A stretch of DNA of 34,923 nucleotides, taken from UHGV virus genome UHGV-0335080. One strand, written 5' to 3'. Positions 19,757-21,015 of this stretch are shown here, in pieces. The stretch's first letter is position 1; each line of letters starts with the position of its first letter. The notes under the pieces were generated by a model that worked only from the letters and a program-made list of their open reading frames with translations, was not told the DNA's origin and did not search any database. The translations under genes and the position numbers were made by a program. The stretch comes from a virus.

Positions 19757-20563
19757 ATGAAGAAAAAATACGAACTGGTTGTTAAAGGGATAAATAATTA
19801 CCCGGATAAGATTACTGTTACTGTGGTACTGGAAATTGGTGGGTATCCGTCACTGTTGTTGCCAAATGTGGCGATTAGTCTTGACCGTACTGAAGGTGCC
19901 ACGCTGGAGTTTTACGAAGCTGAGGCGAAAAAGCAGGCGAAGCAGTTTTTCATGGATGTTGCTGCCGGGTTATGTGAAGGGAACGAACCGTTGCCGGAAA
20001 AGCGCCCCATAATTTTAGAGGCGCAGGATGTGTTGATAACCTACAAAGGAAAGCTACCGGGAAGAATTACTGGTTCTCTGAAGATGCCGCCGTCAACACT
20101 GCGGTCAGAAAAAGAGGCGTCTTGTCTGCAGTCTGAGTACTCCATTACGGTTAAAAGTGCCGGAGAGGAAGGAAATAAACGTTATTTTATTGCGTCTGCA
20201 CCTGATAAAGATCAGGAATGGGAGTGTAACCGGCCATCCTTTGTTGTATACGGAGATGGCGGGAAAATAACCATCTCAGAAAATGGGAAATTAACACCGC
20301 CATCGCACCAGCATAGTGAGGCGCTCATTGAATTTGCCATTGATTACCTGAAGAACAATAAAAAGCAGGGGCTGATGAAGCGCATTGGTCGTTGCATGGG
20401 ATATCTGCAGGTAGCAGCTGAGATTGAAATGATGGCCAGTGGTGCTGACAATGATGCAGTTGTGCTGGAGGCTCTTCTGCGTGATTTTGATAATACGCCC
20501 TTTAAGAAAGCACCTGTTGACTGGATGCAGCCGGGGATGACTTATCTGAAAGGGCGTATATAA
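19757..20563 (+). CDS. Hypothetical protein (268 aa), low-GC insertion between holin and endolysin
   Basis: GGAGAG RBS; ATG 5 nt after holin stop; AT-rich relative to flanks; no recognised domain, signal peptide or TM segment. Confidence 0.65.
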   Translation: MKKKYELVVKGINNYPDKITVTVVLEIGGYPSLLLPNVAISLDRTEGATLEFYEAEAKKQAKQFFMDVAAGLCEGNEPLPEKRPIILEAQDVLITYKGKLPGRITGSLKMPPSTLRSEKEASCLQSEYSITVKSAGEEGNKRYFIASAPDKDQEWECNRPSFVVYGDGGKITISENGKLTPPSHQHSEALIEFAIDYLKNNKKQGLMKRIGRCMGYLQVAAEIEMMASGADNDAVVLEALLRDFDNTPFKKAPVDWMQPGMTYLKGRI

Positions 20564-20572
20564 GGTGGCTCG

Positions 20573-20887
20573 TTATCTGTTGCTGGATAATCGACTGAAG
20601 ATGCGTTCTTTTTGTGTTTTTGCGTAATGATTGTCCCACTCACAATCAAGGTAGCTTAATTCTTCATTCAACCAGTTATTTATATTGGTCTTAATACGCA
20701 TAAGCATGGGCTGTGTTAATGCTCTGGCGATAATGCCGAGAGTCACAGGCGTGAGATGTCCATACGGCTCAGCCTGAATGGATTTTACTGCATCGTGTTC
20801 TTGTGGGAGGAGTAAGAGGCACTCTGATTTTACCCGCTCATTTATGGCTTGCAGGCATAAATCATAATTATGTTGATCGTTATGCAT
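20573..20887 (-). CDS. Hypothetical protein (104 aa), convergent with upstream gene
   Basis: GAGGA RBS; stop codons of the two genes are 9 nt apart; palindrome CTGAAAT-N10-ATTTCAG just upstream of its RBS. Confidence 0.6.
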   Translation of the reverse strand: MHNDQHNYDLCLQAINERVKSECLLLLPQEHDAVKSIQAEPYGHLTPVTLGIIARALTQPMLMRIKTNINNWLNEELSYLDCEWDNHYAKTQKERIFSRLSSNR

Positions 20888-21015
20888 GGTTAATCCTCTA
20901 CTGAAATTGTCAGATATATTTCAGCCATCAGGAAAAACGCCAGTGTCCTACCGCTGGCGGGCTGAAGATTTAACATATCCAGGGATTCGGAACCGATAAA
21001 TCCTGATAAATATCC

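Follow-up and report, generated by a model that had tools for sequence, protein, structure and literature searches.

The lysis cassette of UHGV virus genome UHGV-0335080 was analyzed in the whole stretch of 34,923 nucleotides (nt), referred to here as the window, and all coordinates are those of this stretch. The sequence is that of an E. coli lambdoid prophage. Between its holin and endolysin genes lies a block of two convergent genes. Gene 1, on the plus strand, encodes a protein of 268 amino acids (aa) that ends in a domain designated E, and gene 2, on the minus strand, encodes a protein of 104 aa designated p104. The same pairing was found in distantly related phages, suggesting that the two genes probably work together. 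The features of the block and its borders are as follows.

19537-19752, plus strand: class II (P21-type) holin S, Pfam PF04971 (E = 9e-33), left border of the variable interval
19757-20563, plus strand: open reading frame (ORF) of 268 aa, gene 1
19757-20056, plus strand: DUF1327/YdfR domain, aa 1-100 of gene 1, Pfam PF07041 (E = 1.7e-43; 147.2 bits vs. a cutoff of 25)
19982-20212, plus strand: linker modules B (aa 76-118) and D (aa 119-152) of gene 1, placed from homologue sequences and a tblastn map; predicted local distance difference test (pLDDT) score 22-33
20213-20563, plus strand: carboxyl-terminal domain E, aa 153-268 of gene 1, with invariant columns and a ratio of nonsynonymous to synonymous substitution rates (dN/dS) of 0.23-0.33
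20564-20572: spacer between the two stop codons, exactly 9 nt
20573-20887, minus strand: ORF of p104, gene 2, 104 aa
20894-20898, minus strand: Shine-Dalgarno sequence GAGGA of p104, 6 nt before the ATG and kept in other alleles
20901-20907 and 20918-20924: arms of the inverted repeat CTGAAAT-N10-ATTTCAG
20938-20959: GC hairpin CGCCAGTG-tcctac-CGCTGGCG, with an outer stem TTCAGCC/GGCTGAA at 20920-20926 and 20960-20966
20967-21015: conserved endolysin leader, from the alignment of regions upstream of R
21016-21549, plus strand: endolysin R, lysozyme of the signal-anchor-release (SAR) type, Pfam PF00959 Phage_lysozyme (E = 4e-25), right border
721-2034, minus strand: integrase

The ATG of gene 1 follows the holin stop codon after a gap of 4 nt, and a GGAG motif lies within the 3' end of the holin gene. 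The layout reported in the initial annotation, with two ORFs tail-to-tail between holin and endolysin, stop codons 9 nt apart and a GAGGA ribosome binding site (RBS) for the 104-aa gene, is present at the positions listed. The greater AT-richness that it noted was also confirmed. The fraction of guanine plus cytosine (GC) is 0.448 in the block, 0.413 in the p104 gene and 0.461 in gene 1, as compared with 0.546 in the holin gene, 0.521 in the endolysin gene, 0.523 and 0.532 in the 5-kb flanks and 0.509 in the whole window. Furthermore, the block, described as acquired cargo in the initial annotation, is optional: in related prophages the holin and endolysin genes lie as little as 1 nt or as much as 1.87 kb apart.

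Both ORFs are genuine genes under purifying selection. Between diverged alleles of p104, dN/dS was 0.27-0.58 at a dS of 0.14-0.52, while the five other frames of the same region gave values of 0.49-1.7. The 3' half of gene 1, encoding modules D and E, had a dN/dS of 0.23-0.33.

Architecture of the two proteins

Both proteins had been considered unrecognised. This remains true of p104 in sequence and fold searches but not of the 268-aa protein, as its residues 1-100 match DUF1327 (E = 1.7e-43). The DUF1327 gene of the Qin prophage, which the initial annotation had named, proved to be the correct link, given the Pfam match and the 44% identity between K-12 YdfR and the window protein over aa 1-78. 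The location of gene 1 in a lambdoid prophage, flanked by a class II holin and the lysozyme, likewise fits the DUF1327 family.

Comparison with homologues of 162-333 aa showed that the gene 1 protein is a mosaic of modules A to E. Module A (aa 1-75) corresponds to DUF1327, modules B and D are poorly modeled linkers that are shuffled among alleles, and module C is an optional coiled coil that is absent from the window allele. In the AlphaFold model of the 268-aa protein (mean pLDDT 53), aa 4-69 and aa 155-230 are folded, and the sequence between them is of low confidence. The first of these parts is the core of the DUF1327 domain, consisting of three strands followed by a helix (pLDDT 62-83). 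Domain E was modeled as three strands and two helices, followed by a conserved tail, and carries the invariant motifs IGRCMGYLQVAAEIE and F(D/N)xxPFK...W..PG..YLKG. In homologues of 185 and 213 aa, E stands behind a coiled-coil amino terminus instead of DUF1327. DUF1327 is a fusion partner of E in E. coli lambdoid prophages. The possibility that E is a duplicated and diverged copy of DUF1327 was rejected, with an hhalign probability of 0.2%.

Domain E matches PHROG 1085, a family of unknown function, and sequence searches of Pfam, NCBIfam, PADLOC and the Protein Data Bank (PDB) gave no match to it. Searches of Pfam, PHROGs, NCBIfam and PADLOC with both proteins and with aa 101-268 of the larger one recovered DUF1327 and, beyond it, only PHROGs without an assigned function. 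PADLOC 2.0 contained no component matching p104, the 268-aa protein or its carboxyl-terminal part. PDB searches with single sequences and with profiles of both proteins yielded no meaningful match, and no membrane segment was predicted in either.

The amino-terminal domain has been studied in the Qin protein. Residues 1-72 of Qin YdfR are reported to bind the catalytic, amino-terminal half of RNase E and to co-purify RNA, overproduction of YdfR reportedly has a small effect on the transcriptome, and a genetic screen cited in the same paper ties ydfR to envelope integrity (PMC13232886). The window allele, at only 44% identity in that region, may bind RNase E as well. Some version of the ydfR-family gene had matches in 3210 of 5426 complete E. 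coli genomes (~59%), often in several prophages per genome, including Shiga toxin (Stx) phages and the O104:H4 outbreak strain. A scan of contigs, with one genome per species, recovered only 3 loci with domain E, all in Escherichia or Shigella.

The model of p104 is confident (pLDDT 89.9, predicted template modeling score 0.83) and consists of five helices. The protein is predicted to be soluble, with a grand average of hydropathy of -0.57 and no membrane segment. Fold searches with the model returned generic helical matches only, and p104 had no known relatives by sequence or fold in the databases searched, which included Pfam, NCBIfam, PADLOC and PDB. It is the founding member of a small family restricted to mobile elements. 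This family comprises 21 proteins among 1.84 billion representatives and 41 clusters in a word-indexed search, every named one from E. coli. The gene was found in 95 of 5426 complete E. coli genomes and in 3 phages among 50,697 records, and a scan of one genome per species found no relatives.

Association of p104 with domain E

The analysis of the pairing covered 80 holin-anchored viral contigs, 42 p104-anchored viral loci and 80 E-anchored loci. In all 42 p104-anchored viral loci, E was adjacent and convergent. Among metagenome loci found with the p104 profile, E was nearby in 20 of 20, adjacent in 19 and ~2.7 kb away in one. Altogether, p104 occurred with E in more than 60 loci in phage contexts vs. 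a single haplotype, of the L132/L133 type, without it. The reverse does not hold: 51 of the 80 E-anchored loci (64%) lacked p104 and 29 carried it. Judged by this distribution, p104 depends on E for its presence in phages, and E is independent of p104.

The pairing extends to strongly diverged loci, namely L127/L128, L138/L139, L141/L142 and L143/L144. In the L127/L138 lineage, p104 is ~48-52% and E ~55-59% identical to the window proteins. The p104 proteins of L141/L142 and L143/L144 are 37% and 40% identical, respectively, and are again convergent with their neighbor, which in L141-L144 is an E-domain homologue of 33% identity (E = 2e-15 to 5e-21). DUF1327 is absent from the cassettes of L141-L144, in which the holin is of the lambda type and the endolysin of the GH108 or another type, and in L141 and L143 the pair sits just upstream of the holin. 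The convergent geometry is kept, with stop codons 9 nt apart in the window, 6 nt apart in L143 and overlapping by 33 nt in L141. Thus the arrangement is shared by five lineages, down to 35-40% identity and including cassettes with unrelated holins and endolysins. Moreover, the pairwise identities of p104 and E move together (68/80, 48/55, 38/39, 40/35 and 64/66%). In this respect the two genes do behave as a pair. The ancestral unit is taken to be a coiled coil-E gene with a convergent p104.

The interpretation that we favor, tentatively, is that the block may be an accessory module of two genes, conserved in the lysis cassettes of enterobacterial temperate phages, in which p104 would be a separately transcribed antagonist or regulator of the late protein E.

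In the holin-anchored sample, E often ends ~40 nt before the endolysin gene, with no p104 between them. Loci of the L020 type, which have E but no p104, still contain the 9-nt spacer and the final four p104 codons, fused to the endolysin leader, and these remnants are the scar of a clean deletion of p104. Such loci bear on the possibility of a classical toxin-antitoxin or abortive-infection pair, in which E would be the toxin and p104 the antitoxin protecting the lysogen. The two genes are indeed small, adjacent, co-diverging and carried on AT-rich cargo, and a toxin/immunity role had been among those proposed in the initial annotation. As a classical toxin-antidote pair, this role is very improbable: the putative toxin gene occurs without p104 in the majority of loci (51/80), a state that arose at least once by clean loss of p104 and that a lethal toxin would not tolerate. 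In addition, the genes are convergent and do not form an operon, and PADLOC, Pfam and NCBIfam gave no match to families of this kind.

The antisense slot and expression of the block

The slot homologous to window positions 20573-20937 is occupied in related cassettes by five other, unrelated families of antisense ORFs directly upstream of the endolysin gene. They are represented by L026, L007/L013/L031, L002 (phage PhiR5_1), L005 and L015/L083, with sizes of 90, 70-91, 86-110, 105 and 210 aa, and they belong to PHROGs 2411, 18136, 2572 and 10490, all of unknown function. About one third of the holin-anchored loci carry one of these five genes. Overlap of these antisense ORFs with a truncated 3' end of the ydfR-family gene is frequent. 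The idea that the six families are one diverged family was rejected, since hhalign probabilities were at most 2.3%. The PhiR5_1 antisense gene is annotated as DUF1823, an assignment that was also rejected: its protein scored 15.3 bits vs. a cutoff of 25, and p104 did not match. The 105-aa antisense ORF of L005 had a weak partial PADLOC match to PDC-S51 (E = 1.3e-5, 22 bits), which spans 60 residues of a 376-position model and may reflect coiled-coil similarity alone.

A hairpin accompanies the antisense genes. Its consensus across cassettes is CGCCAGTG-N5/6-C(A/G)CTGGCG, and the core GCCAGTG-cccac-CACTGGC, together with the leader that follows it, is common to five of the six antisense families. 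It was found at the matching place in L002, L005, L007, L013, L015, L024, L031, L083 and L111. In L026, a non-homologous 7-bp hairpin (CAGCCTG-aggcaa-CAGGCTG) occupies the same spot. The alignment of regions upstream of R showed no hairpin there in loci without an antisense gene. Both strands of the hairpin fold better than shuffled sequences (z = -2.0 and -2.8), and its G-U variants favor either strand about equally; the hairpin may act on either RNA. A plain minus-strand terminator was considered and rejected because the T-run is found in p104 alleles only and not in the other cassettes.

The hairpin also marks the end of shorter ydfR-family genes. In L003 (phage BP-4795), L009 and similar intervals of 399 nt, the 114-aa YdfR ends (..PPLA*) within the right arm of the hairpin. 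Because of this end point, the widespread 114-aa YdfR of Stx1-type phages appears to derive, by deletion, from a longer gene and an antisense cassette. The well-known short forms of YdfR would be truncation or deletion derivatives.

The inverted repeat CTGAAAT-N10-ATTTCAG upstream of p104 is present as first described, but its proposed role as an operator was rejected, and that as an RNA structure was not supported, because it is not conserved. In other p104 alleles the right arm has degenerated to ATTCCAG or ATTCCCG with no compensatory change. The block contains, in all, four perfect inverted repeats of 7 nt with 7-11-nt spacers, including this one, which is probably without function. An Rfam scan of positions 19300-22800 found nothing.

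Intrinsic terminators were not found near the 9-nt spacer or downstream of p104. For this reason, overlap of the two transcripts at their 3' ends, which the initial annotation had regarded as necessary, is likely. In L005, the hairpin and the antisense gene's RBS are ~16 nt apart, leaving no room for a promoter downstream of the hairpin, and any antisense promoter is thus predicted to lie upstream of it, in the endolysin leader or the 5' coding region of the endolysin gene. Promoter scans of the shared R-leader in nine cassette types revealed no sigma-70-like site in a conserved position.

The possibility was considered that what matters is transcription of p104 rather than its protein. Convergent transcription and the antisense RNA would shield the endolysin gene, in the lysogen, against read-through, with the hairpin protecting processed R mRNA. 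Such a function would fit the occurrence of sequence-unrelated antisense genes that all lie immediately upstream of a lysis gene, the association of a hairpin with each of them and with no locus lacking one, even where the hairpin is non-homologous as in L026, and the lack of a terminator between the convergent genes. However, purifying selection on p104 is confined to its own frame and its fold is confident, which argues that the protein is selected, and no promoter was identified. An explanation in terms of RNA is therefore considered quite improbable.

In the favored interpretation of an accessory module with p104 as antagonist or regulator of E, opposite expression regimes are proposed for the two genes because they converge, their 3' ends touch, gene 1 would be expressed late only and no terminator lies between them. 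Gene 1 would belong to the Q-dependent late operon, be read by late transcription only and probably be translationally coupled to the holin. The p104 protein would be made when late transcription is off, in the lysogen or early in infection. At lysis, E would be made, and late transcription would then suppress p104 by collision and antisense pairing. The p104 protein would check E that leaks from its own prophage or that comes from rival co-resident or superinfecting phages. As a best guess, the role of E may be in RNA decay or be associated with lysis.

Several observations weigh against this interpretation. P0161, a common allele resembling p104 (220 member sequences), is found by itself in a truncated prophage from which the forward gene is deleted, and p104 relatives of 31-38% identity occur in a conjugative-element context with no E-like ORF; p104-family proteins can thus persist without E. 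In L024 and L111, the E alleles are almost the same but the amino-terminal halves of p104 differ, which disfavors strict cognate specificity between the two proteins. Adjacency could in part reflect hitch-hiking across the 9-nt gap. The unrelated antisense genes in the same slot are the pattern expected of a plain insertion hot spot. Finally, a sigma-70-like site (at least 8 of 12 matches) was not found upstream of p104, and its expression in the lysogen is an assumption because no promoter was found.

The serious rival is accordingly that two unrelated cargo genes occupy an insertion hot spot and that their pairing is linkage only, p104 being an autonomous antisense moron like lambda bor, with a lysogenic-conversion, exclusion or anti-defense function. 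We regard this as a real possibility, if a doubtful one. It draws on the variable length of the holin-to-endolysin interval, on at least six unrelated antisense families upstream of R, five of which share the hairpin and leader, and on the existence of p104-like genes without E and of E without p104 in 64% of loci. It is also in keeping with the greater AT-richness of p104 than of its neighbor (GC 0.413 vs. 0.461) and with the presence of further accessory genes close by in related prophages, where ant lies between R and Rz and a Tad2-like gene follows Rz. Linkage alone would not readily account for pairing and convergence that outlast both a replacement of the flanking holin and endolysin families and a divergence to 35-40% identity, for the parallel divergence of p104 and E, or for the near absence of p104 without E in phage contexts (one haplotype vs. 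60+ loci).

A lysis-timing device was also considered, in which E modulates holin triggering, endolysin release or the stability of late mRNA, and p104 tunes E. All phage loci examined have the pair inside or at the head of the lysis cassette, a gap of 4 nt separates the holin stop codon from the start of gene 1, and YdfR is reported to bind RNase E and is linked to envelope integrity by the cited screen (PMC13232886). However, the holin and endolysin families differ among lineages, making a direct conserved contact unlikely, 11 loci of related prophages have no gene between S and R, and neither protein has a predicted membrane segment. A timing function is considered improbable.

A more elaborate proposal is that p104 and E are an undescribed co-evolving antagonist-effector pair. 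The p104 made in the lysogen would neutralize the late E of rivals, or E leaked from its own prophage, and E, fused in E. coli to the RNase E-binding DUF1327 domain, would reprogram RNA decay or lysis as infection ends. This proposal is unlikely as it stands. If true, it would represent a new kind of inter-prophage competition or lysis-control module.

Prophage setting and relation to known systems

Besides the integrase, the window encodes a CI-like repressor, DnaB- and DnaC-like replication proteins, terminase and head proteins. The late region is of the Stx-phage type, with a NanS-p-like esterase (17525-19387), a P21-type holin, lysozyme and Rz; no stx genes or tRNAs were seen in the window. 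The hydrophobic, Ala/Gly-rich amino terminus of endolysin R fits a SAR type. A strong terminator-like hairpin on the plus strand (21640-21672), with a 15-bp stem followed by a T-run, lies just 3' of the endolysin gene. The interval of ~560 nt between R and Rz contains only small hydrophobic ORFs here and the anti-repressor gene ant in phages 86 and BP-4795, and it appears to be a second variable slot. In L135-L137, prophages with a 333-aa ydfR-family allele, a Tad2-like gene (PF11195, anti-Thoeris) follows Rz at positions 4592-5113, and known anti-defense cargo therefore adjoins the lysis cassette in these loci.

Rearranged versions of the block were also noted. In L134, from E. coli O104:H4 2011C-3493 (O3K_RS27015 / O3K_RS10485), the forward ydfR-family gene is annotated as a pseudogene and p104 is intact; the part coding for domain E is 100% identical to that of the window. 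In four IMG/VR loci, the forward gene is likewise broken and p104 intact. The 1870-nt interval of L124 contains an IS1-type insertion, with an InsA-like ORF, between p104 and the endolysin gene. In L061, L089 and L101 the endolysin match stops at aa 146, and in L089 the remainder resumes ~2.6 kb away, consistent with an insertion. The p104 relatives of 31-38% identity (L129-L131) have genes for TraG_N, an integrase, a ribosomal L31 paralogue and a 190-aa lipoprotein nearby, in what looks like a conjugative or integrative element. Each of them is preceded by a co-directional gene whose 217-aa product is predicted to have three membrane helices; in L131 this protein is cut to 97 aa.

The genes themselves are already public. 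Stx2-converting phage 86 carries essentially the same 2.2 kb at 97.7% identity, where gp05 is annotated as 'YdfR family protein' and gp06 as 'hypothetical protein', and the block is also present in a non-Stx prophage of the O104:H4 outbreak strain. Literature searches by locus tag and for genes of the holin-endolysin interval in lambdoid and Stx phages returned nothing relevant other than PMC13232886, and no description was found of domain E, p104, their pairing or the antisense slot with its hairpin. Three starting points are offered by this locus: the conserved core of the ydfR-family gene is a new domain with a dedicated antisense partner, the short YdfR forms derive from longer ones by truncation or deletion, and a hairpin accompanies every antisense gene at the slot. 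They bear on late-stage phage biology, on the targeting of RNase E and on competition among co-resident prophages. Should p104 prove to inhibit E, the control that prophages exert over one another's lytic programs could be studied simply with this pair.

One of the closest known systems is YdfR of the cryptic Qin prophage of K-12, which has the same amino-terminal domain in the same place, after a P21-type holin and before the lysozyme. YdfR differs in having 103 aa, no E domain and no antisense neighbor, and the end of the K-12 gene overlaps rrrQ; the window protein has 168 extra residues, including domain E. The block also resembles a type II toxin-antitoxin system in having two small adjacent genes that co-diverge on mobile elements. 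It differs in that the genes are convergent rather than a co-directional bicistron, most loci carry the 'toxin' as an orphan and Pfam, NCBIfam and PADLOC gave no match to known toxin, antitoxin or defense families.

Morons of lambdoid phages, for example bor and lom of lambda, have reportedly been described by Juhala and colleagues in 2000 and by Hendrix and colleagues. The bor gene of lambda is oriented against the late operon, beside the lysis genes. Like a moron, p104 is optional, AT-rich, located in the late region on the opposite strand, as is bor, and present or absent among close relatives. However, no promoter or downstream terminator was identified for p104, and a hairpin lies upstream of the gene instead. 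Unlike a typical moron, p104 also travels with a specific neighbor, the E gene, across deep divergence.

In the operons of pore-forming colicins of the ColE1 and ColA type, an antisense immunity gene is placed between the toxin gene and the lysis gene, and the immunity proteins are integral proteins of the inner membrane. The likeness to the block is one of layout only, an induced gene, a small gene on the opposite strand, presumably with its own promoter, and a lysis gene. In contrast to the colicin immunity proteins, p104 is predicted to be a soluble helical bundle with no membrane segments, and the E protein is without a recognizable receptor, translocation or pore-forming or killing domain. 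There is no relation of sequence or fold, and the colicin operons are an analogy only.

Several phage proteins act on RNase E, among them gp0.7 of T7, Dip of phiKZ and Srd of T4. Like these proteins, the DUF1327 domain may target the host RNA-decay machinery (PMC13232886). The gene 1 protein differs from them in that its sequence is unrelated and in its timing, which would be late, together with the lysis genes.

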